Assembly (NCBI GenBank): GCA_036785375.1
Contig: JAWMAR010000116.1
Span: 2,914,001 to 2,978,000, forward strand
Reading direction: 5' to 3'
Origin: Leucoraja ocellata
Lineage: Eukaryota
Length of the DNA stretch: 64,000 nt
The notes under the pieces are model-generated. The model saw only the letters and a program-made list of their open reading frames with translations. It ran no database searches and was not told the origin of the DNA. A program made the translations under genes and the position numbers. Shown here one piece after another: positions 2,183-59,742 of this stretch. Numbering within the stretch: the stretch's first letter is position 1; every line of letters starts with the position of its first letter.

Positions 2183-2966
2183 TCCCTGGTTAACTCATCC
2201 CTGTCCACCCAAACTATCTTCCCCCCTGGTACCTTCCTCTGCAGCCGCAAAAGATGCAACACCTGTCGCTATAGCCCCTCCCTCGAATCTGTCCAGGGAC
2301 CCTCGACAGTCCTTTCAGGTTAGGCAGAGGTTCACTTGAATGTCCTCCAACCTCATCTACTGTATCCGTTGTTCAAGATGTGGACTCTTATACATCAGTG
2401 AGGCCAAACGCAGACTGGGCGATCGTTTAATGGAACAACTTCGTTCAGCCCGCCTGACCCACCTGATCTCCCGGTTGCTGGACACTTTAATTCTCCTTCC
2501 CATTCCACCACAGACCTTTCTGTCCTCGGTCTCCTCCATTGTCAGAGTGAGGCTAAACACAAATTGGAGGAACAGCAGCACATATTTTGCATGGGCAGCT
2601 TACAGCCCAGTGGTATGAATATTGATTTCTCTCACTTCAGGTAGCCCCGGCATTCCCTCTCTCTCTATCCCTCCCCCACCCAAGTCACACTAGCTTCTCA
2701 TTTTCACCCTACAAATAGCTAACAATGGCCTGTTTCCTTTATCATCATTACTTTTTTCCATATCCTTCATTCATTGTTCTTTATCTCTCCACATCACCGT
2801 ACATATCTCTCTTGTTTCCGTTATCCCTAACCAGTATGAAGAAGTGTCTTGATCCGAAACGTCACCCATTCCTTCTCTCCAGAGATGCTGCCTGTCCCGC
2901 TGAGTTACTCCAGCTTTTTGTATCTATCTCCGGTTTAAACCAGCATCTGCAGTTCCTTCTTAAACA
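2183..2966 (+). mobile_element. Penelope-like element 3' fragment: degenerate GIY-YIG endonuclease plus terminal repeat with degenerate hammerhead
   Basis: Frameshifted ORFs PGTFLCSRKRCNTC and SSNLIYCIRCSRCGLLYISEAKRRLGDR (Cys-rich linker plus GIY-YIG of PLEs), then ATGAAGAAGTGTCTTGATCCGAAACGTC at 2836-2863. Confidence 0.88.
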
Positions 2967-3095
2967 TTGACAAATGTCAGCCAGGCAATACGGAAACATG
3001 CCAGAAGTTGCCTGCTGAAAAATGATCATGATTGCATACAGAATGGCTTTTAGGCAAAGAACAGCACCATAGGAAATGAATGGAAATGAGTCCAT

Positions 3096-3292
3096 TCAAC
3101 GGTTCAATGGTACTTCATCTGTCACATGTACCGAGGTACAGTGACATTAATGTTTGTATACAGCTCAGCACATATCACTATACATAAGCACTTAGATACA
3201 TCTTAGATAGGCATCTCAGATACAAGTGCATAGCAGTAATACACGGAGACAGTATACAGAGTCGCCAGTTTGGCACCATTTTCAAGTCCCAT
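3096..3292 (-). repeat. Family X repeat
   Basis: Reverse-complement homology to 527-697, including the GTACATGTGAC..CCATTGAA tail. Confidence 0.75.
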
Positions 3293-3804
3293 TTGTTGTA
3301 TGTGCAGGGTTCTTGACCCGACATTGAAGAACCGTTGTCCGAGCGCCATTTCTAAGCAAAGCTATACAATTTTCTTTTGACCTCTACCTGCACTTCACCG
3401 ACTGCATTGTGATCAGAGGCTCAAAAGCATGTAGTCCATAAACAATCAACCTTTGCACAGTTGAAATGCAACTTATTCCCTCCTCCCATGAACGTTGGCT
3501 TAGTTATCAGCTCTTCCATTTATCTCTTTATTAGCGGGTATGGGCTTCATCCCACTATGGTCATGATCATCAAGGCACGTCAGTGTGTGTGACTCTAGTA
3601 GTGCCTAGTTAAGCGCAGCTCCAATAGTCAAAACGCTCATCAAGATCCACTTGACCGGTCATTTATTGAAGAGTTGGCTCTTCAAAGACCTGTCTCCTTT
3701 GCTATGAACAAGTAATTTGTAGAAAGCCCAAACTGGAATAAACTGGAATGACAATACAGGCCTTACCTTGTACGGAGAAGGAATCTTATACTATGTGTCC
3801 ACAG

Positions 3805-3957
3805 TATGTAGATACTAAGTGCTGGAGTAACTCCGTGAATCAGGTAGTTTTTCTGGAGAAAAAGGATGTGTGTAGAGATGCTGCCTGACCCATTGATTTG
3901 CTCCAGCACCTTGTGTCTATCTTCAGTATATACAGCACCAGCATGTGCAGAACCTGT
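3805..3957. mobile_element. PLE terminal-repeat inverted pair, centre deleted
   Basis: GCTGGAGTAACTC..CTGGAGAAAAAGGAT followed by AGAGATGCTGCCTGACCC..CTCCAGCA. Confidence 0.65.
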
Positions 3958-5171
3958 CTGCAAATTTTGTCCATGGTATATAATCCATAAGATGCCAGGT
4001 TATCTGAATTTAAATGTGTGCATTTGTCTTTTCAAAATTTTAAATGTGTTTTTTATTTCATCAATCTTATTGCATGCCATTAAAAAAAAATCATATAGTC
4101 AAAAGGAACAAATAGTTTTCTAGGTCATCATCAGCTGGAGTTCCTGCTGCAAGATCCTGTTGTGCATCAACATAGCAGAGTGGAGATATGTTTTGGCACA
4201 GTTTGTAAAATCTTAACCAAGTGATGGACCAAGTGATAGACCCTGAGGTCGGAATGAGCTACCTTTGCAAAACATAGTTGTGAGAATGTTCATCTGCATG
4301 CTGCATATTACCTTTTTGCACCTTGAGGGAGATTGTTTGTGGGATTCCAACAGCTACAGAGAACCTGGAGAACCTGAAAGGGGCAGGGAAAATGTAAGGG
4401 TGGGTTCTTTGAAGAGGCCCGATGAATATTCATAATTACTTACCAGGATGCCCTCTGGCTTCTCTGTTGAACCTTGTCACGTTTCACTCAAATTGAATAC
4501 TTTATGGAATACTTTATTGTCACATGTGACAAGTCACAGTGAAAGTCTTTGCCTGCAATACCCAAGGTATGCAAACAGTCGCCACATAAAGGGTGCTGAC
4601 AAAGTTACAAGTATCCCGTGTCAAGTCCACATTTGTTCTCCCTCCTTCTCCAACCCTTGGCTCTCTGATTTAATTCCGATTTATTTTTTTCAAACCACCC
4701 CTAGACACAATCTAGGTGCGACCACTTGGCTTTCGATTGCGCACAAGAATCTCAATGTTGAATCCCAACTTCAACATGGTCCAATGTTTCACCCCCCCCT
4801 CCGCTCCCCCCCCCCCCCCCCCCCCCCCCCCATTCCATTCTGCGGTTTGTTGTGGGTGGGTTTTAATTCAGTAAAGAGCAACATGCTTGGCCTCCATGAC
4901 TACAAAGTAATGCCTTGATATGACCCTGCCGGAAAGCGCAAGGGCAAAACCTCTTTGAATTCTAATATCATGTGATGTACTATGGTTTCTATGGTCAACC
5001 TCAACAAGGGTGTTGCTGATTTGAAACTGCCCGGTTTTGACTGAAGGAAAGTCAAAGATCCGTCTAGACAATGTCCAATAGCTGGATTGACAAGAAGGGC
5101 AACATAAACTGCACCTTCTTTGATTTCTTATGTTTTTATGTAATCAGGATGCAAGGAGTCAGGGCCACCAA

Positions 5172-5286
5172 TCACACACACCCCCTCCACACACATGTAC
5201 GCAACACACACACACACCCTCAAACACCCTCCTCACACACACCCAAACACCCCCTCCACACATACACGCAAACACCCCCTCCACAC
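5172..5286. repeat. CA-rich simple repeat
   Basis: Low-complexity CACAC/CCCCTCC units running into a gap. Confidence 0.9.
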
Positions 5287-5478
5287 NNNNNNNNNNNNNN
5301 NNNNNNNNNNNNNNNNNNNNNNNNNNNNNNNNNNNNNNNNNNNNNNNNNNNNNNNNNNNNNNNNNNNNNNNNNNNNNNNNNNNNNNNNNNNNNNNNNNNN
5401 NNNNNNNNNNNNNNNNNNNNNNNNNNNNNNNNNNNNNNNNNNNNNNNNNNNNNNNNNNNNNNNNNNNNNNNNNNNNNN
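5287..5478. other. Assembly gap (N)
   Basis: Run of n. Confidence 1.
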
Positions 5479-5599
5479 GATGAAACAGGGAAGAACAGTA
5501 AAAACACATCTCAATCAAAATCTGTGACTGTGTATCTGCCCAAGCATTAGTTCATAGTTATTTTAAATTATGATGGTCTGTTTAGCAATAATCACCTAG

Positions 5600-6821: not shown

Positions 6822-7517
6822 AGGGCCTGTCCCACTTACGTGTCTTTGGCACGCAAATTACATGACCTCGTGGTCGCGTTAAGGCGCACGGGCATCGTAT
6901 GGTCGCGCGGGACCGGTCCCACTGAGAAGCGCGGAGGGGTATGTAGTTGTGCGCGACATCGCGCGGGGCTCCAAAATGTTTGTAGCGAACAATATCTTCG
7001 CGCGTCAACGGCCTGTCGCGTAAATGACGGCCAAAGTGGGACAGGCCCAAGACCCTGGCGTGATGCAACGTCTCACCTTCAACAGCAGCAGAAGCAGGCA
7101 AACAATCGCCGAGCTCGGCCTGCGGCTCACGGCCGTTGCGGTCCGGGTCCGCCTCCACATCAACTCCCAGAGCGGGGCCAAGAAAATTGAAGATAGACAC
7201 AATATGCTGGAGTAACTCAGCGGGACCGGCAGCATCTCTGGAGAGAAGCAATGGGTGACGTTTCAGGTCAAGACCCTTCTTTCCGACTGAAGAAGAGTCT
7301 CGACACGAAACGTCATCCATTCCTTCTCTCCAGAGAAGCTGCCAGTCCCACTGAGTTACTCCTGCATTTTGTGTCCATATTCAAATGACGTCACGCACTC
7401 CAGACGGCTGTGCGGGCGAATGAAGTTGTACGCGACCTTCGCGGGACCGTCGCGCCTCAGCGCGACCACAAGGTCGCGTAATTAGCGTGCCAAGGGCACG
7501 TAAGCGAGACAAGGGCT
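6822..7517. mobile_element. MITE (Harbinger-like) with about 70 bp imperfect TIRs, CpG-rich, containing a PLE-derived insertion
   Basis: Left AGGGCCTGTCCCACTTACGTGTCTTTGGCACGC.. matches the reverse complement of the right end; flanks TTA/TAA; shares CCTGTCCCACTTA with the MITEs at 15629 and 29864. Confidence 0.8.
7187..7384. mobile_element. Palindromic PLE terminal-repeat pair with hammerhead-like motif on each strand
   Basis: Inverted arms of about 95 bp; minus motif 7256-7285, plus CTGAAGAAGAGTCTCGACACGAAACGTC 7287-7314. Confidence 0.85.
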
Positions 7518-9387: not shown

Positions 9388-9655
9388 GAGACACAGGAAA
9401 CTGAAAATGCTGGTATCTTGAACAAAAAAAACTAAATGCTGGAGAAACTCCATGGGTCAGGCAACATCAGAACATTTTGGTTCAGTACCCTTCTTCAGAC
9501 ATATGGAGTGAGGGAGGGGAGAAAGCTGGAAAAGGAAGTTGGGATGGGGCAAAGCCAGCAAGTGATAGGTGGATGCAGGTGAAGGTTTAGGGTGACTGGC
9601 AGATGGGTGGAGGCATTGACAAAGTCTAGAGGTGAACAGGAGCCAAAAGGATGTC
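9388..9655 (-). mobile_element. PLE 3' fragment (terminal repeat plus pyrimidine-rich 3' UTR)
   Basis: GCTGGAGAAACTC..CCCTTCTTCAGAC followed by a purine-rich tract homologous to 12700-12970. Confidence 0.7.
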
Positions 9656-9682
9656 AAGACTCAAGAGTGTTTTATAGTTATA

Positions 9683-11838: not shown

Positions 11839-12970
11839 AAGGAAAGAAGAGTAGGGGTGAGATGTAAAGCTGGAGGGAGTGATATGGGTGGAAGGAGGAC
11901 AGGGGGAGAGGAAAGAGGAGATCTGGGATGCAGGGATGGGAGATGAGCATTCCAAGGAGGGGAAAGGAGCAGGGTGATTAGGGTGGTGAGAGAAATAATG
12001 CGAGTTGGGAGTGGGGGAAAGGGAAAGAGAAAGGGGGATATTACTTGAACTTGGAGAATTTGCCTGCAACTACAGGGATTGTAACAGCTGTCCCTTCCCT
12101 CCTCTCTCACTTCATGCAGAGACCTGCGCGTAGACCACTGAGACCTTCTGGGGGTCCCAGTTGCTAACTGCTCTTCCCATACCCGTACCAACTTTTCTGT
12201 CCTTGACCTCCTCTGTTGTTGGAGTGATGCCAGACAAAAACTGGAAAAACAGCACCTCATATTTTGCCTGGGTAGCCTACAACCCAACTATGATCATCGA
12301 AGTTTCCAATTCCAAGTATATCCCCATAACCTACTTGCCCTGCGGTAGAGTTGCTGCCTTGCAGTGCAAGGGAACCAGGTTCAATCCTGACTGTGGGTGC
12401 TATCTGTATGGCGTTTGTACATTCTCCCAGTGACCACGTGGGGTTCCTCCGGGTGCTCAGGTTTCCTCCCACGTTCCAAGGATGTACAGGTTTGTAGGTT
12501 TATTGGCTTCGGTAACTTGTAAAATTGTCCCTAGTATGTAGGATAATGTTAGTATACAGGGCGATCGCTGGTCAGCACGAACTTGATGGTCCGAAGGGCC
12601 TGTTTCTACTCTGTGCATCTAAAGTCTAAAGGCTAAATCCCTGAGTTCCAGATTTATTTTACCCCCTCTTACCCCATCCAGTCCACCCATTTCCCATCCC
12701 TCCAATTTAACATTTCACACCTCCTTTCCTTATCTGGCACCCTTTTGTCTCCTTTTCACCACTAATGTTTGTCACTTACTCAACCCATCTGTCAACCACC
12801 CTCCCCCACCCCTCTACTCACCTGCATCCAAATATCACTTGCTAGGCTGTGTCCCACCCCCACCTTTCTTCTCCAGCATCCTGCCCCCTACTCTGGGGGT
12901 CAGTCTGAGGAAGGGTTCCAACCCAAACCACCATCTGTCCATTCCCTTCCCAGATGCTGCCTGGCCCATT
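11839..12970 (+). mobile_element. PLE fragment with inverted 5' piece (11839-12062), GIY-YIG remnant and terminal repeat, interrupted by a SINE
   Basis: NWKNSTSYFAWVAYNP matches the 2340 ORF; CTGAGGAAGGGTTCCAACCCAAA near 12905. Confidence 0.7.
12340..12636 (+). mobile_element. HE1/V-SINE-like SINE
   Basis: Family homology. Confidence 0.88.
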
Positions 12971-12971
12971 C

Positions 12972-15628: not shown

Positions 15629-15856
15629 TGCCCCTGTCCCACTTAGGAAACCTGAACGGAAACCTCTGGAGACTTTGTGCCCCACCCAAGGTTTCCGTGC
15701 GGGTTTCCCAGAGGTTTTTGTCAGTCTCCCTACCTGCTTCCACTACCTGCAACTTCCGGCAACCACCTGCAACCTCCGGGAACCGCACAGAAACCTTGGG
15801 TGGGGCGCAAAGTCTCCAGAGGTTTCCCTTCAGGTTTCCTAAGTGGGACAGGGGCA
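15629..15856. mobile_element. MITE, 228 bp, long near-perfect TIRs (Harbinger-like)
   Basis: TGCCCCTGTCCCACTTAGGAAACCTGAA..TTCAGGTTTCCTAAGTGGGACAGGGGCA; TAA/TTA flanks; second copy at 29864. Confidence 0.9.
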
Positions 15857-16011
15857 TTATAATAACATCTTCCATACTCTGCTTATGATGGAAGTAGATC
15901 TTCAGCCAGTGATGAGCTGGGTTGGATCCATCCTTCTTTAATTAGGCAGGACAAACCTGAGCAATTATTATGTATATACCAGTGTTGGAACTGAACTAGA
16001 ATAACCTGACT

Positions 16012-16260
16012 ATAAAATGCTGGAGCATCTCAGCGGGTCAGGCAGTATCTCTGGAGAATGTGGATAGGCAACGTTTCAGGTCTGAACCATTTCTTCTGAC
16101 TCAAGAACTGTCAAAAAACTCAAGAAGATTCAGTCTGAAGAGGGTTCTGACCGGAAACATTGCCTATCCATGTTCTCAAAGGATGCTGCCAGACTCACTA
16201 AGTTACCACAGCATTTTGATTCTATATTTGGTATGAAGCACCATCTGCAGTTCCTTGTTA
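16012..16260. mobile_element. Palindromic PLE terminal-repeat pair
   Basis: Minus arm 16012-16100, spacer, plus arm from AGTCTGAAGAGGGTTCTGACCGGAAAC. Confidence 0.8.
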
Positions 16261-16464: not shown

Positions 16465-16560
16465 GAAGAGTCTGAAGAAGGGTCCTGACCTGAAACGTTA
16501 CCCATCCTTTCTCTCCAGAAGTGCCGCCTGACCCACTGAGTTACTCCAGCATTTGAGTCT
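16465..16560 (+). mobile_element. Short PLE-derived hammerhead element with TSD
   Basis: CTGAAGAAGGGTCCTGACCTGAAACGTT from 16472; TSD AACATGAGGACTGAA / AACATAAGGACTAAA. Confidence 0.82.
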
Positions 16561-17949
16561 AACATAAGGACTAAAATGGCTTTTCTTCACCTAATTTCAC
16601 CACAATCAAATTGCCCTGTTAGGTAAAAAAAAATACCCCCCTCTATCAACACACAAATGAATGTTAATTAATTTACAGCCTGATCTACTTTAGACATTAA
16701 TTTGTTCTCGGGTTAAGGGCTAATTGAGTCAAGGAAAAAAATAGACTAAATTCAGAGCTCTTTTTTAAAATTGCTGATTTCCTGAGCAAACACAAATGAG
16801 AATTAAATCATGTTTGATTCTTGTAACAACACTTTGATTTGTTTAGCGTACAGCAGAGGCCGCGACACTGGCATGCTCAAAATCGACAAGCATAAAAATC
16901 AGTTCTGATTTACTGCTGTTTTTAATCACTAACTGAAGCCCTTTAAATTTACATAATTTAGAAATGATATCTACGCTTAGATGAGATTAATGGCTGTAAA
17001 CACAATGAACTGCTGATTATCTAATGTTCTCTGGATTAGTAAAACATAGTGATCAACTTCCTCCCCACATTTCAGTGAGAGGTCTTCATATACAAAAGTT
17101 GCTTTCATGTTTAGTGAGTAATTGCCCAGTGACGTTACTGAATTTCAAAAGAGTTTTATGCTTATTCCATAAATTTCATACACAAAATAGATAGATCCAA
17201 AGCCAAATGCATCATAGACTATGATTTACAAAAAACATTCCCAAAAGCATTGAAATCTTGTGTAACTGGGCATATTTCCCTGAGAACATTCTCTCTCTCT
17301 CGACTTCTGTCCAGTCCCTAAAGTTACCCTTGAGTGGTAGCATGTAGTGATCTGAATCCAGCTAATTTCAGGTCCCAGTTCATTAGAATGGAAATCTCAT
17401 GAGCTAAAAGCCATTAATTTATAAAACATTCAAATCCTAGTCTAAGATTATTTTTCCAGCTAACTGCCATTTTAAAAGGAAACTTGTTTTGTGCAAAAGA
17501 TCCTTGTAAACTCCATTAGTCTCCATTCATGCAGAGCCAGATTCCCCTGTGTAAAATTCCTGCAGGCTCATGTTGAACGCAGCAAGGGGACTTAGCTGGG
17601 GAATCACCAGCAAAGCTTTGCCAGTACATTCAGAAACACAATATACCATGTTGCAGTCCAAAGTTGCAATCCTCAAAATGAGAAATAACAGCTGTTCCAT
17701 GCAGAGCGGTTGGCAAAATCGAGCAAATTTGGGCTTTTATTATTTAAAAATGTGCCCAGTTTTGTAGAGGTTAGCTGAGGAACCTGAGGAACGCTCATAT
17801 ATAATATTAGTTTCATTAGAACAAGTGAGTTTGTTCAACGGTTACTGCGCCTCAGTAAACCGTGTCATAGATTGAAGTATATTTTCAACGGTAAAAGCTG
17901 CAAATGTCAGTAACACTTAGCATCTGTGGAGAGTTAACATTTCGGGCCT

Positions 17950-18270
17950 TTCTGTCCTGGGCTTCCTCCATTGTCAGAGTGAGGCCACACACAAATTGGG
18001 GGAACAGTCCCTCATATTTCGCTGGGGCAGCTTGCAACCTAACGGTATGAACATTGATTTTTCTCCAATTTCAAGCAACTCCTGCATTCCTTCCCCTATG
18101 AACCTACAAACCCACTTTGGAGTGTGGGAAGAGAACCAGAGCACCCGATGAGAACCCATGCAGTCACAGGGAGAATGTGCAAACTCCGTACAGACAGTAC
18201 CCATAGCCAGGATTGAACCTGGGTCTCAGGCGCTGCGAGGCAGCAACTCTACTGCACCACTGTGCCGCTT
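17950..18270. mobile_element. PLE GIY-YIG 3' remnant (+) abutting a SINE 5' half (-)
   Basis: CTCCATTGTCAGAGTGAGGC..AAATTGG matches 2535-2640; SINE 18100-18270. Confidence 0.75.
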
Positions 18271-19275: not shown

Positions 19276-19603
19276 TCATATCGCCTGCTCGGTGTGAAGT
19301 AAAACTGTCTAGATGAGAAGGGTAGTGTGAGAAAATGGCAAAGTGCTGGAGGGGTTGGAAGGGATGGGCTTGGTGGGTACATGTGTGTGTGCGTCTGTGC
19401 ATACCTACACATACTGTATGCATAAATAAGTGTCCAGTGTAAAGAATTGCTGTAGAAATCACCATGACAAATCCAGCTGTGACAATATTGTTTCCATTAC
19501 ATTAGTTCTCTCTCTTACCAAGTAAGACATTCATGACCACATCAATCTTTCAGAGAAACTTGGTGCTATTACCCTGTCATCTCCAGCCTCTCTTTCTTCC
19601 ATG

Positions 19604-19832
19604 TGTAAGAAGGAACTGGTGATGCCGGGTTATACCAAAAATAGACATAAAAAGCTGGAGTTACTCAGCGGGTCAGGCAGTATTAAAAAAGATTTAAGTA
19701 ATGTTTCTAGCTGGAACCCTTCTTCAGACCCTGAAGAGTCTGAAGAAGGATCATGACCCGAAACATCACCTATTCCTTTACTCTTGAGATGCTGCCCGTC
19801 CTGCTGAGTTACTCCAGCATTTTGTGTCTCTC
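19604..19832. mobile_element. Palindromic PLE terminal-repeat pair
   Basis: ..CCCTTCTTCAGAC / GTCTGAAGAAGGATCATGACCCGAAACATC.. Confidence 0.8.
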
Positions 19833-20856
19833 TTTCCTCCATGGTTGGCTGCGGTGGGAATGTGCTTTTATGAGCAGGTGTCATTCTCTGATTGCTGTAC
19901 AACAACGCATCAGAACTGCAATAAACTGGAAGTGCCCACACACACCGCAACTTAGATATCTCAATGGGAACCAGTTTCACAACAGTTGTTTTGAGAGACA
20001 CAGTTTGCTGCTCACTCTACACAACATTGATTCAACACATTAGGAAAAATGAATCCAATTTCTAAGAAAAAATCAGTAAGGAATTCCGATAATCTCATAC
20101 TTAACCTAATTCTGCAAAATTTAAAAAAAGCTACTAAATTGTAAAATCAACATATCTTGCTTTTTCTGTGCAGTGTTGTGAAGCAGTTTGGAATTATCAA
20201 TACTTCAAATTTTTTATAATATTTACCCATTGTGAACCATAACTGGCCGATCCTTATTTTTTTTAACATTAAAATTAACAGGTGAGGTGGAATTGAGCAC
20301 AGCTTGTGACTGTGCAGAGAATGTCAAGCTATTTATTTCCCGCGGCTAATCTGGTCCTAAAAGATTTGCTACATTTGACACTGGTGCATTTGTGGCACTT
20401 TATTCATTCTCCTTGCTGTTTATTTACTGAATTTCAATGTCCAATAGATCCATGTAGTTTATCTATTTTCTGCCTGTTTTGATGCAAGCTGACATCCTAA
20501 AAGTAATAGTAATTCAGAAAAGCTGCCCGGGCAAGTGATCAATCAGCATACCGAGTATGTGAATCCATATCCAGCCAATAAATCAACTAGGTCCCTTTCC
20601 AACTCTGGATTTGAGTCCACATACCCAGCTAATAGACCCGAAGATCGTGCCACAAACTTCTGAGAGAAAGGGATCTATCGTACAATCTTTGGCATGGGTT
20701 AAGTCCCCCATGTGTAAATTCCAGAATTTCACAATGCCTTCCCTTTGCTTTGTTGTTGCATTTTTGGAAATAGATACACAAAGTGCACTCTGGCCAAATG
20801 ACTATCGGCACTGGCCAGTACACTCACCAGTACAAAATGTGCGAGGAAGACACACA

Positions 20857-22114: not shown

Positions 22115-22680
22115 ACAGAAGGAATTATATAATGCTGGTTTATACCAAGGATAGACACAAATTGCTGGAGTGATTCAGCTGGTTACGCAGTATCTCTGGA
22201 GGAAAAGGATAGGTGACATTTCGGGTTGAGACTCTTCTTCAGACTGGAAGTAGGGACTGGATGAAGAGCTGGAGGCAAGAAAAGACCAGGAGCAAACAGG
22301 GCCGGTAACAAATGACCTCAGGCAGGGAGGGGTGGCCTGGAAGGCCCTATTGGTGGCTAGGGAAGGTGTGATCTCAAGAGGGATACAATGTGGTGAACTA
22401 TGGAACTGGTTAAATGACTAGGGTGGAGGAAGGGGACAAGGGGGGGAGTGGAGGGGAGTGTTAGTAGAAGTTACTTAAAATTAGAGAATTCAACGTTCAT
22501 GCCACTGGGTTGCAAGCTACCCAAGCAACATATGAGGTGCTGTTCCTCCAATTTGTGTGTGGCCCCTCTCTGGCAATGTAGGAAGCCCAAGACCGAAAGG
22601 TCAGTGCGGGAATGGGAAGGGGGGAGTTGAAATTGTTGGCAACCGGGAGATTCAATAGGCCTCGGCAGACCGAGCGGTCT
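22115..22680 (-). mobile_element. PLE 3' fragment (GIY-YIG end plus terminal repeat with hammerhead motif)
   Basis: Reverse complement of CTGAAGAAGAGTCTCAACCCGAAATGTCACC at about 22212-22243; endonuclease end at 22470-22680. Confidence 0.82.
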
Positions 22681-22950: not shown

Positions 22951-23477
22951 CAGCGAGCTTTTAGGTCCTTTGTACTTTGGATTTAGCTATTTATTTTGTC
23001 ATTAGGTTTAACCAGGCTTACTATTGTGTTAACCCAGTATGAAATACTGAGAAATAATTACCACAAAATAACAATATTAATAATTCAAGCACTGGTAACC
23101 CCAGTCAAATGAATAAGGTTGCAGTTCATATGCCGATCACTGAGGGGCCAGATGTGAAGTGCACCTGGTCCACTTTGTTCAGTGGTGAATCCAGCAATGG
23201 AGTGAACATTTCGAATGATCCTCCCAGGTTATTTTGTACTTCCACATTAGGTTGAGCAAGGATAGAACTCTTAAATAAACTAATTTAAAAAACTGCCAGA
23301 GAAACTCAGCAGCTCAGGTAGCATCTGTGGAGGGATATGAATAGACAATATGGATGCTGCCTGACCTGCTGAGTTTCTCCAGCAATTTGCTTCTCACTCA
23401 AATGTCCCAGCATCTGCAATCTCTGGTATCTCCATCTCCAACAAACTAACCTGGAAATAGCTGAAAATTAACTTTTG

Positions 23478-25790: not shown

Positions 25791-25920
25791 GTAGGAAAAA
25801 AACGTCAGATGCTGGTTTAAACTGAAAATAGACACAAAAGACTGGGGTAACTCAGCGGGTCAGACAGCAACACTGGAGAAAAGGTATAGGTGACGTTTTG
25901 GGTCGAGACCCTTTTACAGA
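25790..25920 (-). mobile_element. PLE terminal-repeat fragment
   Basis: GATGCTGGTTTAAAC..GGTGACGTTTTGGGTCGAGACCC. Confidence 0.8.
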
Positions 25921-29423: not shown

Positions 29424-29457
29424 GGTCTGAAGATGGGTCTCGACCCGAAACGTCACC
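29424..29457 (+). ncRNA. Minimal type-I hammerhead ribozyme motif
   Basis: GGT-CTGAAGA-T-GGGT(CTCG)ACCC-GAAA-CG-TC-ACC. Confidence 0.7.
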
Positions 29458-29509
29458 CATTCCTTCTCTCCAGAGATGCTACCTGCCCCGCCGAGTTACT
29501 CCAGCTTTT
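29424..29509 (+). mobile_element. Short PLE-derived hammerhead element with 12-bp TSD inside family X
   Basis: TSD TGGCCACTCTGT (29412-29423) / TGGCGACTCTGT (29510-29521). Confidence 0.85.
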
Positions 29510-29611
29510 TGGCGACTCTGTATACTGTCTCAGTGTACTACTGCTGTACATTTGTACTGTATCTGAGATGCTTATCTAAGTTGTATGTCAGTGCTTATTT
29601 TAGTTTACCAG

Positions 29612-29778
29612 AGACAGAAAATGCTGGAGTAACTCAGCGGGGCAGGCATCATCTCTGGAGAGAAGGAATGGGGGACGTTTCGGGTTGAGACCCTTCTTCA
29701 GATCTCAGACCAGAAACATCAACCAGCATTTGTGTCTAACTTCAGTGTATAACCAGCATCTATAGTTCCTTCCTACTT
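29612..29778. mobile_element. PLE terminal-repeat inverted pair, plus arm internally deleted
   Basis: GACGTTTCGGGTTGAGACCCTTCTTCAG followed by TCTCAGACCAGAAACATC. Confidence 0.78.
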
Positions 29779-29782
29779 AATT

Positions 29783-30240
29783 CAGTTTAGTTTGGAGATA
29801 CAGCGCATAAACAGGCCCTTTGGCCCACCGAGCCCGCACCTACCAACAATCCCCGCACACTTATGCCCCTGTCCCACTTAAGAAACCTGAACGGAAACCT
29901 CTGGAGACTTTGCGCCCCACCCAAGGTTTCCGTGCCGTTCCCGGAGGTTGCAGATGGTTGCCGGAGGTTGCAGGTAGTGGAAGCAGGTAGGGAACCTCCG
30001 GGAACGCAAAGTCTCCAGAGGTTTCCGTTCAGGTTTCCTAAGTGGGACAGGGGCATAACACTATCCTACACAAACTAGGGAAAATTTACAATTTTACCAT
30101 TCCAATTAACCCACGAACCTGTATGGTCTTTGGAATGTGGGAGGAAACTGGATCACCCGGAGAAAACCCACGCAGGTCCCAGGAAGAACGTACCAACTCC
30201 AGCACCCGTGGTCAGGATCGAACCCGGGTTTTTGGCACTC
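29783..30240 (-). mobile_element. SINE interrupted by a MITE
   Basis: Family homology on both sides of 29864-30055. Confidence 0.85.
29864..30055. mobile_element. MITE, same family as 15629, opposite orientation, internal deletion
   Basis: Near-identical TIRs; TTA/TAA flanks. Confidence 0.9.
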
Positions 30241-31218: not shown

Positions 31219-31385
31219 TGATAGACACAAAATACTGGGGTAACTCAGCTGGTCAGGCAGCATCTCTGGAGAAAAGGAACAGGTGATGTTTCGGGTGGAG
31301 ACCCTTCTTCAGACTGACAGTCAGGGGAGAGGGAAACTAGAAGTATGATTGGGTATAGAACAAATCAGAGCTGACACCGATGACT
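31219..31385 (-). mobile_element. PLE terminal repeat with hammerhead motif
   Basis: GGTGATGTTTCGGGTGGAGACCCTTCTTCAGACT. Confidence 0.8.
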
Positions 31386-34376: not shown

Positions 34377-34823
34377 ATATTTGAACGAGTCACTGTATAA
34401 AATCATATAGAGGCAATTTAAACTAAAAATATGTAGGAACACTCAGCATGTCATGTAGCATCTGTGGAAAGAGGAACAGTCCACAGTTCAACTTGGACCC
34501 TTTGCCAGTTTTTACAGCGTTATGCTTTCCACAGACAATGTCTGACCTGCTGAGTGTTTCCACCATTTTCTCCAGAGTTTTATTCCAGATTTCTAGCATC
34601 TTCAGGTTTTTTGTTTGTTGATGTTCATCACAAAGAAGGTCGTCACTTTACACAATGCACCAATTTCTCTGATGCATCAACATAGCCATAGACAACCTGG
34701 TCAAGTCCTAACTCTGAGGGAACATGGTAGACAAAATTTCAATAAAAATTTGAAACAATCCCTCACATACCATCTTTCCAAAACAAGTTGAAAGAGAAAA
34801 TGAATCAAATACTTGAATTGACA

Positions 34824-34942
34824 CCAGTCTGAAGAAGGGTCTTGACCCGAAACGTCACCCATTCTTTCTCTTCAGAGATGTTACTCCAGCTTTTTGTGTC
34901 TATTTTCGGTTTAAGCCAGCATCTGCAGTTCCTTCCTACACA
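34824..34942 (+). mobile_element. Short PLE-derived hammerhead element
   Basis: Family homology, ending CATCTGCAGTTCCTTCCTACAC. Confidence 0.85.
34826..34859 (+). ncRNA. Minimal type-I hammerhead ribozyme motif; predicted cut after C34856
   Basis: AGT-CTGAAGA-A-GGGT(CTTG)ACCC-GAAA-CG-TC-ACC. Confidence 0.7.
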
Positions 34943-37970: not shown

Positions 37971-37974
37971 TAAT

Positions 37975-39043
37975 TCGAGGGAGTTAGATGTGGCCCTTCT
38001 GGCTAAGGGGATCAGGGGGTATGGAGAGAAGGCAGGTACGGGATACTGAGTTGGATGATCAGCCATGATCATATTGAATGGCGGTGCAGGCTCGAAGGGC
38101 CGAATGGCCTACTCCTGCACCTAATTTCTATGTTTCTATGTTTCTATGAATGTACATTGGAGACACAATCTGAGGAAGGGTCTCGACACAAAACATCACC
38201 CATTCCTTATTTCCAGAGATGCTGCCTGTCTCGCTGAGTTACTCCAGCAATTTGTGTCAGAAACATTCTCTTTGTCCACATGGGCAAGAAGTTGTTTGTT
38301 TATTGAGGTTCATATCCTAAACAATGTGTGTGTGTACTGCTCTAGACACAAATTCAGGGTAACTCCCACCATTTGAAACTTTATCTCAAGATTCTCAAAG
38401 GCTCTTTCTGTGGATATCAATCACGCATGGAACTTTTCTGCTCATTGCCACATTACAAAAGCTAAGGGTAACCTTACTGGCAAAGTGAGAGATAAATACA
38501 ACCTTTGCACTTACACCTCTAAGGGGCATTTGGCAGCGATTCTACTTCTAGGTTGCGATTCAGAATCCTAAAGAAACATCCATGGTGGGCAAAGAAAGCT
38601 CACACTCCTTTCTTGCATCTTTTTTTCCCTCCCCTCCTACAACAGTCTGAAGAAGTATCCCGACTTGAAACATCACCTACCCAAGATCTGTAGATATGGA
38701 TATTTTTAAGATGGAGATTGACAGATTTTTGATTAGGAATTATGGGGTTATGGGGAGAAGGCAGAAGAATGGGATTGTGTGGGAAAGATCAATCAGCCAT
38801 GATTGAATGGCAGATTAAACTTGATGGGCCAAATGGCCTTATTCTGCTCTTAGAACTTATGAAATTATGCTACCTGACCTGCTGAGTTACTCCAGCACCT
38901 TGTGTCTTTCTTTGGTAAACCAGCATCAGCAGTTCCTTGTTATTAGTTGAATGATCAGCCATGATCATATTGAATGGCGGTGCAGGCTCAAAGGGCCGAA
39001 TGGCCTACTCCTGCACCTATTTTCTATGTTTTTATGTTTCTAT
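37975..39043 (+). mobile_element. Cluster of CR1 3' tails (37975-38147, 38690-38865, 38950-39043) and PLE repeats (38168-38260, 38640-38942)
   Basis: GGCCGAATGGCC hairpin with (TTTCTATG)n tails; CTGARGAAG motifs. Confidence 0.8.
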
Positions 39044-39279: not shown

Positions 39280-39702
39280 AGCCTTGAATCCAGAACCAGG
39301 GGCCACAATTTAAGGCCTGAAGAAGGGTTTCGGCCCGAAACATTGCCTATTTCCTTCGCTCCATAGATGCTGCTGCACTCGCTGTTTTTCTCCAGCACTT
39401 TTGTCGGCCACAGTATAAGAATAAGGGGTAGACCATTTAGAACAGAGATGAGGAAAAACTTTTTCACCCAGAGAGTTGCAAATCTTTGGAATTTTTGTCT
39501 CAGAAGGCAGTGGAGGCCAATTCTCTGGATGCTTTCAAGAGAGAGTTAGATGGAGCTCTCAAAGATAGCGGAGTCAGGGGATATGGGGAGAAGGCAGGAA
39601 CGGGGTACTGATTGTGGATGATCAGCCTTGATCACAATGAATGGCACGGATGGATCGAAGGGCCAAATGACCTTTTCCTGCTCCTATTGTCTATTGTCTA
39701 TT
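39280..39702 (+). mobile_element. CR1 3' fragment interrupted by a hammerhead element (39315-39405)
   Basis: GHSIRIRGRPFRTEMRKNFFTQRV; TSD GGCCACAATTTAAG / GGCCACAGTATAAG. Confidence 0.85.
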
Positions 39703-43085: not shown

Positions 43086-43089
43086 TCTC

Positions 43090-43400: not shown

Positions 43401-43756
43401 TGAATGAGTGTGTGTGTCCAACTTGACCTCAGTAAGCACCTCAGAACTCACAAAGCTAGAATGCCTAAGAAGAAGAAAAAAAGACAAAGGAGATGAAAAG
43501 GAAGAAAACAACTACTGTTTACATTTATTGGAGCGAGTGATACTGCGTGGAAACAAGTCCATGCCCATCATTCCACCATTTACACGAATCCAACATTAAT
43601 CTTGTCATAGAGTGATAGAGTCAAACAATACAGAAACAGGCCCTTCGGCCCAACTTGTCCATGCCAACCAAGATGCCCCATAGACCTTAATCCCACCTGC
43701 CCTCGTTTGGCCCAAATCCCTTTCTTATCCATGTAATCCACCTTTATTCTCTCCAT

Positions 43757-43986
43757 GTTCAAGAAGGAACTGCAGATGCTGGAAAATCGAAGGTACACAA
43801 AAATGCTGGAGAAACCCAGCGGGTGCAGCAGCATCTATGGAGCGAAGGAAATAGGCAACGTTTCGGGCCGAAACCCTTCTGAAATTCCAGTCTGAAGAAG
43901 GGTTTCGGCCCGAAACATTGCCTGTTTCCTTTGATACATAGATGCTGCCGCACCCTCTGAATTTCTCCAGCATTTTTGTCTACCTA
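43757..43986. mobile_element. Palindromic PLE terminal-repeat pair with perfect 13-bp TSD
   Basis: TTATTCTCTCCAT at 43744-43756 and 43987-43999; plus motif CTGAAGAAGGGT(TTCG)GCCCGAAACATT from 43892. Confidence 0.9.
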
Positions 43987-47599: not shown

Positions 47600-47830
47600 G
47601 CATTTGCAGATGCTGGTTTACACCGAATATAGACACAAAAAGCTGGAGTAACTCGGTTTGGTCAGGCAGCCTCTCTGGAGAAAAAGAATAGGTGACGTTT
47701 CGGGTTGAGACCCTCCTTCAGACTGAGAGCCAGAGTAGAGGGAAACGAGATATATGAAAAGGTACGAGAGATATGAAAAGGTACATAGAACAAATTTATG
47801 AAAGATATGGACAAGGACAAATCAACAGCA
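47600..47830 (-). mobile_element. PLE terminal repeat with hammerhead-like motif
   Basis: GGTGACGTTTCGGGTTGAGACCCTCCTTCAGACT. Confidence 0.82.
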
Positions 47831-48189
47831 AAATTGAGGTGGCCTAGATTGTGACTGGATTAGAGAGGGTTAATAGGAAAATGTTGTTCAGAGCAAAGAA
47901 ATAGATCTAAAATCAGGGACAAAAGAGACTGGAGTGATGTGAGGATCGCTTATTTACAATGACAATAGTTGTGATCTAGAGGTCACTGCCTGTAGGAGTG
48001 TTATATGCACACAAAAGGGAACTAGATAGAATATAGAAAATAATTTGCAGGACAAGCGAACAATTAGAGGAATGGGATTGAATGGGATAGGTTAGCAGAC
48101 CAAATGATGTTAACAATTGTATGATTCTAAGGCGAGGCTATAAAAATATCAATAAAAACAGTGCAACTGGAAGCAGCTGAGGATTCGTA

Positions 48190-48392
48190 GAAAGACACAG
48201 AAAGTTGGAGTAACTCAGCGGGACAGGCAACATCTCTGGAGCGAAGGAATGGGTGGCGTTTCGGGTCGAGACCATTCGATCCGAAACGTCATGCATTCCA
48301 TTTCTCCAGAGATGCTGCCTGTCCCGCTGAGTTACTCAAGCTTTTTGTGTCTGACTTTGGTTTAAACCAGTTTAGGCAGTTCCTTCCTACAC
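48190..48392. mobile_element. Palindromic PLE terminal-repeat pair, junction inside the ribozyme
   Basis: GCGTTTCGGGTCGAGACC / TCGATCCGAAACGTC. Confidence 0.85.
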
Positions 48393-55357: not shown

Positions 55358-56831
55358 CCTGAGGATTGGCGGGTAGCAAACGTAACCCCACTTTTTAAGA
55401 AGGGAGGGAGAGAGAAAACGGGGAATTACAGACCAGTTAGTCTAACATCGGTAGTGGGGAAACTGCTAGTCAGTTATTAAAGATGGATAGCAGCACATTT
55501 GGAAAGTGGTGAAATCATTGGACAAAGTCAGCATGGATTTACGAAAGGTAAATCATGTCTGACGAATCTTATAGAATTTTTCGAGGATGTAACTAGTAGC
55601 GTGGATAGGGCAGAACCAGTGGACGTGGTGTATCTGGACTTCCAGAAAGCTTTCGACAAGGTCCCACATAAGAGATTAGTATGCAAACTTAAAGCACACA
55701 GCATTGGGGGTTCAGTATTGATGTGGATAGAGAACTGGCTGGCAAACAGGAAGCAAAGAGTGGGAGTAAACGGGTCCTTTTCACCATGGCAGGCAGTGAC
55801 TAGTGGGGTACCGCAAGGCTCAGTGCTGGGACCCCAGCTATTTACAATATATATTAATGATCTGGATGAGGGAATTGAAGGCAATATCTCCAAGTTTGCG
55901 GATGACACTAAGCTGGGGGGCAGTGTTAGCCGTGAGGAGGATGCTAGGAGACTGCAAGGTGACTTGGATAGGCTGGGTGAGTGGGCAAATGTTTGGCAGA
56001 TGCAGTATAATGTGGATAAATGTGAGGTTATCCATTTTGGTGGCAAAAACAGGAAAGCAGACTATTATCTAAATGGTGGCCGACTAGGAAAAGGGGAGCT
56101 GCAGCGAGACCTGGGTGTCATGGTACACCAGTCATTGAAAGTAGGCATGCAGGTGCAGCAGGCAGTGAAGAAAGCGAATGGTATGTTAGCTTTCATAGCA
56201 AAAGGATTTGAGTATAGGAGCAGGGAGGTTCTACTGCAGTTGTACAGGGTCTTGGTGAGACCACACCTGGAGTATTGCGTACAGTTTTGGTCTCCAAATC
56301 TGAGGAAGGACATTATTGCCATAGAGGGAGTGCAGAGAAGGTTCACCAGACTAATTCCTGGGATGTCAGGACTGTCTTATGAAGAAAGACTGGATAGACT
56401 TTGTTTATACTCTCTAGAATTTAGGAGATTGAGAGGTGATCTTATAGAAACTTACAAAATTCTTAAGGGGTTGGACAGGCTAGATGCAGGAAGATTGCTC
56501 CCGATGTTGGGGAAGTCCAGGACAAGGTGTCACAGCTTAAGGATAAGGGGGAAATCCTTTAAAATTGAGATGAGAAGAACTTTTTTCACACAGAGAGTGG
56601 TGAATCTCTGGAACTCTCTGCCACAGAGGGTAGTCGAGGCCAGTTCATTGGCTATATTTAAGAGGGAGTTAGATGTGGCCCTTGTGGCTAAGGGGATCAG
56701 AGGGTATGGAGAGAAGGCAGGTACAGGATACTGAGTTGGATGAACAGCCATGATCATATTGAATGGTGGTGCAGGCTCGAAGGGCCGAATGGCCTACTCC
56801 TGCACCTAATTTCTATGTTTCTATGTTTCTA
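55358..56831 (+). mobile_element. Young 5'-truncated CR1 (HER1-like) LINE
   Basis: RT ORF, 3' UTR hairpin GGCCGAATGGCC, (TTTCTATG)n tail; possible TSD ATCTGATTT (55340-55348 / 56831-56839). Confidence 0.93.
55499..56734 (+). CDS. CR1 ORF2 reverse-transcriptase C-terminal portion, 411 aa, truncated
   Basis: QHGFTKGKSCLTNL, YLDFQKAFDKV, GVPQGSVLGP, KFADD motifs. Confidence 0.9.
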   Translation: MESGEIIGQSQHGFTKGKSCLTNLIEFFEDVTSSVDRAEPVDVVYLDFQKAFDKVPHKRLVCKLKAHSIGGSVLMWIENWLANRKQRVGVNGSFSPWQAVTSGVPQGSVLGPQLFTIYINDLDEGIEGNISKFADDTKLGGSVSREEDARRLQGDLDRLGEWANVWQMQYNVDKCEVIHFGGKNRKADYYLNGGRLGKGELQRDLGVMVHQSLKVGMQVQQAVKKANGMLAFIAKGFEYRSREVLLQLYRVLVRPHLEYCVQFWSPNLRKDIIAIEGVQRRFTRLIPGMSGLSYEERLDRLCLYSLEFRRLRGDLIETYKILKGLDRLDAGRLLPMLGKSRTRCHSLRIRGKSFKIEMRRTFFTQRVVNLWNSLPQRVVEASSLAIFKRELDVALVAKGIRGYGEKAGTGY

Positions 56832-56944
56832 TCTGATTTAGAGTTAAATATAACTTTAATGATGAAAGTCAACCTAGCTTTTGGAAGATTTATTGGGACC
56901 ATTAACATAATTTACTAAAATATAGCAGTTAAATAAGAACACAA

Positions 56945-57880
56945 ACAGAAGAGGATAGGAGCAAGAGGAACCTATGAGACACTTAAAAACTGCCCCACAA
57001 TTTAACATGATCATGGCTGATCTATGTTGGCCTCAACTCCTCTTCTGTGCGACTTCTCTAAACTTCTCTATTCCTTAACCTATTTATCCGCCTTTTACAG
57101 CTCCCACCACTACCCTGGGTAGAGAATTCCAGAGATACATCATTCTTTGCGTGCAGAAATGTTTACATGCCTCAATTGTAAATGAGCGACCCCTTAGTTA
57201 TGTCTTATTATTCCAGACTCTTGCACCAGTGAAACATCACATTGTCTGTCCTGTCAAGTCCCTTTAGGACCGTATATATTTGAAAAAGGTCATCCCTCGT
57301 TCTTCTAAAATAGGATAACAGAATCAAACTATTTTGTATCTCCTAGTAGGACAAACCTCTCATCCCTGGAATTGGCCTGACCAATCTCCTTTGGACTACC
57401 TCCAATATAACGATATTTTTTTTTTAGGGTATGGGATTAAAACTATATATGGTATTCCAGATGAGGCCTGACCACCATTGTAACAAAACCTCCCTATTTT
57501 TAAATTCCAGTGCCCTTCCTTGTGTTGGAAGTCCAAAAGTTGTCTTTCCTTCTGCCTGCCAGCCAGCTTTTTGTGATTCAAGCATTAAAATACATGGATC
57601 CCTCTGTTGTTCACTCAGTCTCTCTCCACTTGGATAATAATCAGCCTTCTGATTTATTTAATTGGAGTGCCTGGCTTCACAATTCCCCACTTTAAATGCC
57701 ATTTGGCAGTCTTTTGGCCACTCACTCAATCTATCTATATATAATCACAAAATATGGAATTCTCTCTCGTGGAAGGCAATGGATGCAAGATCATATGTTA
57801 AATTGAAACCTGAGATCAATAGGCATTTGCTAGATGAGAGTATTAAAAGAGATTGAGCCAAGGCAGAAGAGTGGAATTAA
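56945..57880 (-). mobile_element. Old CR1 fragments
   Basis: ATGATCATGGCTGATC tail and degenerate RT homology. Confidence 0.65.
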
Positions 57881-58374
57881 ATGGCCAAATGTGACTTTAG
57901 TGTAAAACAGATCAGACTCACGTGACTGAATGGTTGCCAATCCATTGTTAGCGGAAATCACAAGGACATTGCCTAAATTTTCTCTTTAATTCGCTTCTTT
58001 TTTTATAACAAATCAAATATTTGTAGGTAATGATAAATGACAGATGAATTTCAGTTTCATTTTTACCAGATTTGCAGTGGCTCTAAAGGACTTTGACATA
58101 AGAAATTGACCAGAAAGTTTTCAAATATGTCCTCCCAGTTTCAGCGCAAAGCTTAATCTCTCCAGTGTAATTGGAAATATTTACGTTCCTCATTGCTCTC
58201 CTGTTGTACTGCCATAACCTTCCAAGAGGATCTTCTCAGTGCATGGTTGCAACATACTAAAAGGATAGAAATTAACTTTAAACCCTTTCCGCTGTGTTTT
58301 CACCAACTTCCAACCAAGGTTGAAAGAAGTCCCATAGAAATTCTCCTCAATTTCCTGAGAGAATATTTGGGACA

Positions 58375-58492
58375 ACAAAGACAGTAGACAATAGACAATA
58401 GACAAATAGGCAATAGTCAATAGATGCAGGAGTAGGCCATTCAGCCCTTCGAGCCAGCACCGCCATTCAATGTGATCATGGCTGATCATCCA
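58375..58492 (-). mobile_element. CR1 3' tail with (AGACAAT)n
   Basis: GGAGTAGGCCATTCAGCCC..GATCATGGCTGATCATCC. Confidence 0.85.
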
Positions 58493-58581
58493 CATGGATA
58501 CACGTGGAAAGCATACAAGTACATTCATTTTTCTGGCATTCATTTTCAAATGACAATGATATGTGGCATTATATTTTAGAA

Positions 58582-58709
58582 TGCTGAAGAAGGGTCTCGA
58601 CACGAAACGTCGCCCATTCCTTCTCTCCAGAGATGCTGCCTGTCCCGCTGAGTTACTCCAGCTTTTTGTATCTATCTTTGGTTTAAACCAGCATCTGCAG
58701 TTCCTTCTT
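58582..58709 (+). mobile_element. Short PLE-derived hammerhead element
   Basis: CTGAAGAAGGGTCTCGACACGAAACGTC at 58584; body near-identical to 2860-2960. Confidence 0.85.
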
Positions 58710-58784
58710 ATAATTATAATTTATAAGGTTGCTTAAGAAACAAATCCAGGTATTAAAATATGTCTTTGGATTTAATACCTTTTG

Positions 58785-58930
58785 AATTGAATTGAATTGA
58801 ATTGAATTGAATCCTTTATTTGTCATTCAGACCTTTCGGTCTGAACGAAATGTCGTTGCCTGCCGCCATACATGTAATAATAAACAACACACAATAAACA
58901 CAAATTAACATCCACCACAGTGAGTTCACC
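58785..58930 (-). mobile_element. Family-Y-related 3' fragment with (AATTG)n tail
   Basis: ACATCCACCACAGTGA shared with 37345. Confidence 0.6.
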
Positions 58931-59326
58931 AATCTCCCCAATCTCCTTTTGGAAGGAATAGAACTGCAATTTGCAAATCCAAAGGTTTTGTGTGTAATTA
59001 TGTAATAAATATATATTATTCTCCAAATAGCAATTTGGAATATTTGCTTTACCATTGGAAAGAGAGGTTGTTGTGATTAAGTTGCCTTACTTTAGATAAC
59101 ATCCTCAAGTATGTAGCCAGAAGTTGTACTATAAATGATGCTGTGGGTAGATGAAAAATAACTCTCAACCATCAACCTCTGCTTCCATCCATGAAGACAA
59201 TTCTCTATACAGTCAACTAGCTCTCTCTATATCCCATGTGAACTAACCTGCAAGAGAAGCCTACCATACAGAACCTTATTGAATGCCTTGCTAAAGTCCA
59301 TAGAGCCAACTTCAATGGTTTTGTGA

Positions 59327-59742
59327 TTAGTTTAGTTTAGCTTAGAGATACAGCACCGAAACAGGGCCTTTGGGCCACCAAATCCGCGCCGACCAACGAG
59401 CCCCATACACTAGCACTATCCTCTACACACACAAGGGACAATTTACAATTTTACCAAGCTAACTAATCTACAAACTTGCACATCTTTGCAGTGTGGGAGG
59501 AAACCGGAGCTCCCGGGAAAATCCATGCAGGTTACGGGGAGAACGTACAAACTCCAAAGTATTTGGAGCAAAAACTGCTGGAGAAACTCAGCGGGCGAGG
59601 CAGCATCTATGGAGAGAAGGATTTGGCGACGTTTCGGGTTGAGACCCTTCTTACAAACGCCATACAGACGGCATCCTTAGTCAGGGTCGAACCCAGGTCT
59701 TTGGGGCTGTAAGGCAACAACTCTATCGCTGTGCCACCATAC
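59327..59742 (-). mobile_element. SINE interrupted by a PLE-derived element (59557-59651)
   Basis: TSD TACAAACTCCA / TACAAACGCCA. Confidence 0.85.

Follow-up and report, generated by a model that had tools for sequence, protein, structure and literature searches.

The window examined here is a stretch of 64,000 nucleotides from Leucoraja ocellata (contig JAWMAR010000116.1, positions 2,914,001 to 2,978,000). It is populated by copies of a short repeat that carries a minimal hammerhead ribozyme (min-HHR) motif and that is also found at both ends of a Penelope-like element (PLE), where it occupies the place of the pseudo-long terminal repeat (pLTR). A preliminary description had counted about 30 copies across positions 2183..59651. 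A profile built from the window copies, then rebuilt on random genome copies, gave 38 within that span and 39 in the whole window, with none in the reversed control. Positions within the unit are numbered with C3 of the core as 0, which places the predicted cut between +27 and +28. Two lengths of the unit occur, about 90 and about 130 bp. This corrects the 85 to 250 bp first proposed, the forms of 180-250 bp being head-to-head pairs, nine of which account for 18/39 window copies. Both fragments with a GIY-YIG endonuclease (2183-2966 and 22115-22680) end in the unit, as first described. The copies are as follows.

2183..2644, + strand: 3' end of the PLE open reading frame (ORF), truncated at its 5' side and frameshifted, with Cys linker, GIY-YIG endonuclease (end placed by tblastn) and stop at 2642-2644; 86% to the full-length element
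2645..2836, + strand: 3' untranslated region (UTR), pyrimidine-rich, ending in CCAGT just 5' of the core
2837..2966, + strand: pLTR with decayed min-HHR (2837-2864) and long tail (+130)
22115..22680, - strand: second endonuclease-UTR-pLTR fragment, older subfamily, long tail; core starts at 22242
16472..16561, + strand: short copy, motif intact (core 16472-16499), short tail
29427..29511, + strand: short copy, motif intact (core 29427-29454), junction GGT, short tail
34829..34942, + strand: short copy, motif intact (core 34829-34856), 18-bp internal deletion, long tail
29612..29775, both strands: head-to-head pair of a motif-intact - copy (core 29701-29674, short tail) and a truncated + partner with long tail
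7191..7378, both strands: head-to-head pair, predicted long hairpin of -134.9 kcal/mol
16011..16260, both strands: head-to-head pair, short and long tail
19602..19833, both strands: head-to-head pair, long and short tail
43756..43983, both strands: head-to-head pair, younger UUCG/GCCC subfamily, long and short tail
48186..48392, both strands: head-to-head pair, short and long tail
3809..3950, both strands: head-to-head pair, each partner truncated below the core
23287..23418, both strands: head-to-head pair, each partner truncated below the core
39317..39405, + strand: short copy, younger subfamily, G16.2 lost
58584..58710, + strand: short copy, long tail, stem II broken
31220..31341, - strand: copy that includes about 30 nt of UTR; core start 31312
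47605..47814, - strand: copy that includes about 90 nt of UTR; core start 47721
25806..25920, - strand: short copy, long tail
38170..38258, + strand: short copy, short tail
59569..59652, - strand: short copy, short tail
near 9498, 12906, 15434, 21863, 27248, 34502/34523, 38647, 38867, 41390 and 60373: other partial copies

Two further GIY-YIG fragments of the same PLE, at 12173-12288 and 17947-18093, have their UTR cut off by other repeats and carry no pLTR.

The abundance of the unit was estimated from 151 stretches of 10 kb, chosen by position on the larger contigs (1.51 Mb in total, the genome sample). The profile identified 740 copies and none in the reversed sequence. The density of 4.9 copies per 10 kb (bootstrap 4.35-5.47) agrees with the one copy per 2 kb estimated at the outset, and extrapolates to 1.5-1.9 million copies, about 1.7 million, in the 3.44-Gb assembly. 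Matches covered 4.8% of the sample, a figure in which flanks are slightly overcounted, so that the repeat makes up some 4-5% of the assembly. An exact 35-letter head occurs 6,695 times in the genome (control 0). Some loci on different contigs or arms are 97-99% identical through their whole flanks (L001/L002, L011/L013, L115/L116). Judged by this identity, such pairs are likely to be uncollapsed haplotypes, and the haploid copy number may therefore be lower. The window region at 2183 likewise has a near-identical twin locus. No description of the family in cartilaginous fishes was found in the literature, though it may have been annotated as a repeat before; the available portions of PMC4350176 and PMC8455134 contain nothing on it. 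This is a known motif within a known element, whose lineage and scale were not found reported before. The word uncharacterised, as first applied to the family, holds in these two respects only, since PMC4209133, in the part available, already includes solitary and opposite-strand min-HHRs from truncated PLEs.

The longer copies have a common 3' end and differing 5' ends. A full-length copy of 3.7 kb (L151/L152) was assembled by stepwise upstream walking. It consists of 22 nt of UTR, a core with long tail, an ORF encoding reverse transcriptase (RT) and endonuclease, a UTR, and a second core with short tail, which bears out the Penelope origin proposed earlier. The first ATG of the ORF lies about 35 nt beyond the long tail. 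Ten younger copies have stop-free frames of 556-815 codons, and in 10/10 the terminal motif is of the UUCG/GCCC form, which thus marks the end of the younger RT-endonuclease copies. Three stop-free frames of 682-815 aa were compared with Pfam. RVT_1 and GIY-YIG were matched in 3/3, RVT_1 above the cut-off in 2/3 and GIY-YIG below it in 3/3 (E 0.001-0.007); no family was matched in 12/12 frameshifted frames from the old full-length copy and the window fragments. The longest frame contains YIDD, a Cys linker, and two Cys within the GIY-YIG domain. The linker before the endonuclease has a CKKCNTC region of the CX2-5CxxC type, a pattern common to Neptune and Nematis in the available text of PMC8557442; Neptune, and not Nematis, is reported in vertebrates in that of bioRxiv 10.64898/2026.07.22.740005. 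By its linker motif the element would be placed among endonuclease-bearing (EN+) PLEs of the Neptune/Nematis pattern. The nearest database proteins (57-64%) come from stingray, devil ray and carpet sharks (Hypanus, Mobula, Rhincodon, Stegostoma, Chiloscyllium), in keeping with the elasmobranch setting first suggested.

Copies linked to an endonuclease are a small minority. They number 37/740, so that short copies outnumber them 20 to 1, with a cut-off of 40-330 nt, by which older copies whose UTRs measure 467-656 nt are missed. Few copies approach full length: coverage falls from 46 at the endonuclease to 2 at the RT N-terminus. A few copies run beyond the long tail and reach +184..+253, in the ORF start (L202:421-796, L186:2642-2966, L221:8619-8981). 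Some of these then run into another head, as partial tandems or from a third, later priming site. At L224:742-4160 three identical pLTR copies stand 1.66 kb apart within a larger local tandem duplication.

Target-site duplications (TSDs) of 9-19 bp were found around 41/321 solitary copies, with 2-5 in shuffles; a 42nd match, of 34 bp, is a tandem duplication. Because they are flanked by TSDs, the short copies are insertions. The 3' ends of the TSD copies fall at +85..94 (21/42) or +123..133 (16/42), and 26/42 of the 5' ends fall at -6..+5. Head-to-head neighbors within 60 nt involve 261/740 copies (35%), where chance would give 2.4%. One TSD encloses the whole pair in 39/129 cases (shuffles 0-1), partners belong to one subfamily in 14/17 (4.9 expected), and a long tail is combined with a short one in 80/98 (48.5 expected; p 4e-11). 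The locus L255 is a clean example. Head-to-head pairs are therefore single insertions, and their two tails usually differ, one being long and the other short. An inverted arrangement of pLTRs with the tail on one side has been described before (PMC3846280 and PMC8969392, parts available), and the PLE tail has been traced to two internal RT start sites independent of ribozyme cleavage (available text of PMC11167929).

These observations argue for a reading that we consider likely, in which the unit belongs to a PLE as its terminal repeat and the short copies are dead-end products of its own target-primed reverse transcription. By analogy with the PAc element of the green anole, the PLE protein would nick DNA and start cDNA synthesis inside the transcript's first pLTR, at either of two sites. 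Priming there would mean that only 90-130 nt, up to the RNA 5' end, are copied. When both nicked ends are primed, one per site, the two cDNAs would then be joined into a pair, and inserted copies would decay neutrally. Solitary copies could instead be what remains after the two pLTRs of a full-length insertion recombined. Such recombination would preserve TSDs, and solo pLTRs by deletion were suggested for rotifers (PMC3846280, in part). We regard it as very improbable, given the rarity of near-full-length copies and given that recombination alone leaves the sharp 5' edge described below, the pairs truncated within the unit and the tail asymmetry unexplained.

The preliminary description favored independent amplification of a retrozyme-like unit, that is, a non-autonomous unit resembling a retrozyme or a short interspersed element, transcribed from its own copies and re-amplified, with RNA processed by the ribozyme. 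The 20 to 1 excess of short copies would fit, as would the sharp 5' edge, the initiator-like motif kept in some copies, the lower mutation of the core relative to downstream sequence, and the capacity of rotifer pLTRs to act in trans (PMC3846280, in part). Nevertheless this reading is largely refuted, and we give it little chance. Same-strand neighbors are no commoner than chance (38/740 vs about 52), and no whole-unit tandem array with two cores occurs among 85 arrays of period 40 or more. When subfamilies were defined from the downstream sequence alone, short and UTR-linked copies were mixed in 6/6 clusters and endonuclease-linked copies joined them in 4/6. The sequence variants frequent among short copies are likewise present in copies linked to UTR or endonuclease. 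Divergence is similar for short and linked copies (0.079 vs 0.085; 0.123 vs 0.116; 0.033 vs 0.042), a comparison made in the genome sample, from which rare short-only lineages could escape. Copy ends lie off the cut site, only 9% of the cores are intact, and their pairing shows no covariation. By analogy, PAc requires about 55 nt past the distal start (PMC11167929, in part), which short copies would lack. Under the published definition, as given in the available text of PMC7229834 and bioRxiv 10.64898/2026.07.22.740005, the window unit is not a retrozyme.

The motif was examined with a strict descriptor requiring a CUGANGA core, an extra base, helix II closed by G-C, GAAA, a palindromic 15.2-16.2 and NUH. 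It was passed by 68/740 copies of the genome sample and 4/39 window copies, and by none in the reversed control, which extrapolates to about 155,000 intact cores genome-wide (from 68 in 1.51 Mb). The preliminary description had listed nine clear cores with the motif CTGAAGA-N-GGGT-loop-RCCC-GAAA. The motif stands at 16472, 29427, 34829, 39317, 43892 and 58584 on the + strand and at 29701 on the - strand; the two given as 22243 and 31311 are off by one (22242 and 31312). The descriptor was passed by four of the nine (16472, 29427, 34829 and 29701). The others fail by loss of G16.2 (39317, 43892, 31312), a broken stem II (58584), or loss of C15.2 plus one stem II pair (22242). The cut expected after C34856 was rightly placed, this base being C17. 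The extra base after A9 had been considered a flaw. It is present in 71/72 descriptor-passing copies and belongs to the consensus of PMC4209133, whose available text gives it as conserved and records that helices I of 2 bp occur. In the 72 copies helix I, for which the class allows 2-6 bp, has 2 bp in 43, 3-4 bp in 10, and fewer than 2 in 19. The assignment as a minimal type-I hammerhead with palindromic helix III is therefore upheld.

The two subfamilies had been thought to differ while preserving pairing; the stem II difference is one-sided (U-A to U-G) and not compensatory. Among 386 clustered copies of close subfamilies, changes on both sides of stem II were within the shuffle range at 4/4 pairs. 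Stem II substitutions accumulate as fast as or faster than those downstream (38 vs 31 expected; 171 vs 128), and the CG of helix III is broken in 114/379 copies, mostly by CpG decay. The lack of excess conservation or covariation that was to count against a functional motif is thus plain for stem II and not clearly seen for the core. Neither an extended stem I (-5/-6 with +32/+33) nor an alternative hairpin showed convincing covariation. In folding predictions for six copies, the probability did not exceed 0.15 for stem II or 0.01 for stem I in any of the six. In most of the copies folded the core is predicted to pair with downstream pyrimidines, and inverted pairs are predicted to fold into long hairpins. 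With its internal deletion and low stem II probability, 34810-34900 would be a poor substrate for cleavage. None of the 18 matches of an Rfam scan (E up to 10) is a hammerhead, the top ones being miRNA models on inverted repeats. The doubt first expressed about activity is supported. In PMC4209133 (part available) a monomer was not cleaved and dimers were cleaved at a low level. The ribozyme is likely silent in solitary and inverted copies; if it works at all, it would do so as a protein-assisted dimer within the parent element. Some older, divergent copies (L022:7255, L098:9890, L073:2897) begin with CTGATGCAGGG and have C at or before A9, as in an old family with an altered core.

The 5' edge of the copies is sharp. 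The position +2 is reached by 388/730 copies. Of 387 testable core-reaching copies, 96 continue into the UTR (control 2/200), 45 of them for at least 80 nt, while 75% stop within a few bases of the core, about 28 nt upstream of the cut site. By arithmetic from these counts, the per-base loss at the edge is several-fold above that in the unit interior or the UTR. Starts at +26..30 number 27/730 vs 17 and 17 on either side, so that any excess at the cut site is at most about 10/730. An apparent peak of starts at +20 comes largely from arrays of a 66-bp derivative (12 matches, 3 loci) described below. In solitary copies conservation fades from T(-1) to A(-6), with background composition beyond -6. 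The full-length element L149 starts at the same place as the short copies. TCAGT directly before the core resembles an initiator. The D. virilis Penelope has an internal promoter with an initiator (Inr) and a downstream promoter element (PMC2377424, in part), and an Inr-like site was noted in a rotifer pLTR (PMC3846280, in part). At the junctions of clean solitary copies, G precedes GT in 22/43 (31% expected, p 0.004) and AGT in 8/15 (p 0.036), the first template letter lost being that at -3 or -4, respectively. Internal truncations have no G excess (13 G vs 18 A), and genome counts agree (GAGT 837 vs AAGT 723; GGT 1332 vs YGT 1249). In LINE-1 an extra G has been attributed to copying of the cap (PMC4038843, in part).

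Because of the sharp edge, the initiator-like TCAGT and the G excess, run-off at a capped 5' end is favored. We put at roughly even the chance that the RNA 5' end is a capped start at TCAGT before the core, rather than a ribozyme cut. Its main rival retains the PLE by-products and treats their 5' edge as an RT stop. The core would form a hairpin with +28..+46, and the cDNA, having copied its base, would fold back or jump. The predicted pairing of core and downstream pyrimidines is in line with such a stop, about 12/131 pairs join the core start to the partner's +37..48, and self-priming was proposed in the available part of PMC3846280. A stop of this kind predicts no extra G, however, and the hairpin pairing is weak in older subfamilies, with no clear covariation. 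One quarter of the copies read through the edge, and L149 starts at the same point. We hold an RT stop to be possible but distinctly less likely than the capped start. Another origin for the edge would be splicing. A pyrimidine tract plus CAG before the core is conserved among endonuclease-linked copies and could serve as a 3' splice site, like the one in the D. virilis Penelope, whose intron ends at helix I (PMC4209133, in part); short copies would then be made from spliced RNA. Solitary copies have no common upstream exon, though: beyond -6 their composition does not differ from background, and what their flanks share comes down to local duplications and UTR remnants. No splice joint was present among the 15 joints listed for the RNA run described below, which has 402 more. 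Splicing is accordingly given hardly any credence. A shared first exon or 5' transduction was rejected as well; flanks are shared by eight pairs among 176 solitary copies, explained as local duplications, UTR remnants and one host repeat.

The RNA data were one polyA RNA-seq run of a related organism. Reads over the unit fall equally on the two strands (5,207 vs 5,383) with no pile-up of starts or ends, and are taken as passive transcription with no sign of sense-strand loss. Over the endonuclease (L152:4800-5450) the reads have a 2-4 fold strand bias that lacks a strand control, and its direction is left uninterpreted; the pLTR is unbiased.

Several points weigh against reading the short copies as by-products of priming on a capped PLE transcript. 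TSDs were detected in only 13% of solitary copies. The 5' ends are spread across about 10 nt. The G excess is modest, and A-to-G change and microhomology with an inverted partner contribute to it, most of all in the genome-wide counts. The RNA run is blind to caps and small circles. Substitutions in the core are about half of the expectation based on downstream sequence (29 vs 53; 50 vs 91). We read this deficit as constraint in the parent elements plus an alignment edge effect, which are inseparable here; weak selection on the copies predicts the same. One frequent young variant is represented by five short copies and no linked one. In the available text of PMC3846280, pLTRs alone sufficed for mobilization in trans, and self-priming was preferred for head-to-head junctions. 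Finally, the 66-bp arrays show that pieces of the pLTR can spread without the ORF.

These arrays lie outside the window. An identical 66-bp head-to-tail unit, corresponding to +20..+86 of the pLTR, occurs in 3/151 random stretches, and its junction has 23,048 exact occurrences in the genome. Loci examined are the following.

L040:6936-7424; L179:8670-8904; L027:3017-3183; L261-L271: 66-bp derivative

The arrays are short and bunched in some, GC-richer regions. The unit keeps the helix III palindrome and the cut site and is without CUGANGA on either strand, so that it has no catalytic strand. As a circle it is predicted to fold at -10.7 kcal/mol vs -4.6 +/- 2.4 for shuffles, 4/300 of which are as low. 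In at least 846 cases an array continues an old head in register; these heads come from several decayed subfamilies. At L270 a single 66-bp unit separates an old head from an old tail, and L268 is a free array with a 10-bp duplication. No array starts at the cut site among nine examined. The derivative is young. Gene conversion or copying of linear multimers explains its spread without circles. A bolder proposal, speculative and in our view improbable, is that the short copies are a fossil map of the Penelope transcript (capped start just before the core, two priming sites, one per DNA end, and an unused ribozyme cut) and bred a rod-folding parasite of 66 nt that is substrate only. This parasite would be cut in trans or by an upstream head and circularized; the Penelope RT would roll it out into tandem arrays, which would home to old copies and insert there in register. 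It would be a retrozyme without its own ribozyme. In contigs of other organisms (runs X1, X5, X12; L152:5643-5740) back-joints were seen inside the pLTR tail. One in X5 links +78 to +20 across 7 letters, which would make a unit of 66 bases, and tandem tail derivatives may recur across species.

Unrelated to the PLE, the window also contains, at 15644-15841 and 29864-30055, a GC-rich fold-back element of about 190 bp with terminal inverted repeats, resembling a miniature inverted-repeat transposable element. Rfam miRNA matches to these fold-backs are far below the gathering score.

The insertion mode of PLEs and the role of their hammerheads are stated to be open (PMC8557442 and PMC11167929, parts available). 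The value of this family is that of a natural experiment: the ends of more than a million insertions, by extrapolation, say that the copied RNA was uncut at the ribozyme. They lend support to the priming at two sites observed in vitro and single out one exact position as a candidate promoter. In addition, about one third of the copies lie in inverted pairs, predicted to give long double-stranded RNA inside host transcripts.

The published PLEs and hammerheads used for comparison are known to us from the parts of the cited sources available. Among the min-HHRs of metazoan PLEs (PMC4209133), the repeat fits the consensus CUGANGAH-G..C-GAAAN-palindrome-NUH with its loopless palindromic helix III. 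There, as here, most are single motifs from truncated PLEs and some lie on opposite strands. Helix II is only 4 bp here, and no cartilaginous fish was seen in the available part of the list of PMC4209133. The scale differs, with about 155,000 intact cores extrapolated here vs 4,000 in coelacanth and 9,000 in Xenopus.

Non-LTR retrozymes (PMC7229834; bioRxiv 10.64898/2026.07.22.740005) are alike in having a type-I hammerhead, derivation from or relation to PLE pLTRs, and dispersed monomers. Their definition calls for head-to-tail repeats in which two or more successive units carry a complete hammerhead, and for circular RNA; the tandem arrangement is lacking in the window unit. The 66-bp derivative is tandem like retrozymes, but without CUGANGA.

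EN+ PLEs with a CX2-5CxxC linker (PMC8557442, PMC3846280) likewise have RT followed by a C-terminal GIY-YIG, a C-x-C-xx-C-xx-C linker region and two Cys inside GIY-YIG. Their insertions also share the partial tandem pLTR, the inverted 5' copy, the tail of 30-40 bp at one end and variable TSDs. Unlike those of other EN+ PLEs, the great majority of products here measure 90-130 bp, their 5' edge at the core is sharp, and the tail asymmetry is quantified. PAc, a Poseidon element of the green anole (PMC11167929), belongs to a different clade, and its ORF starts at stem II, whereas the first ATG here lies beyond the long tail. The two would share a pair of internal RT starts as the source of the tail, and insertion without need of cleavage; the distal start lies about 120 nt past the stem II start here and 111-118 nt past it in PAc.

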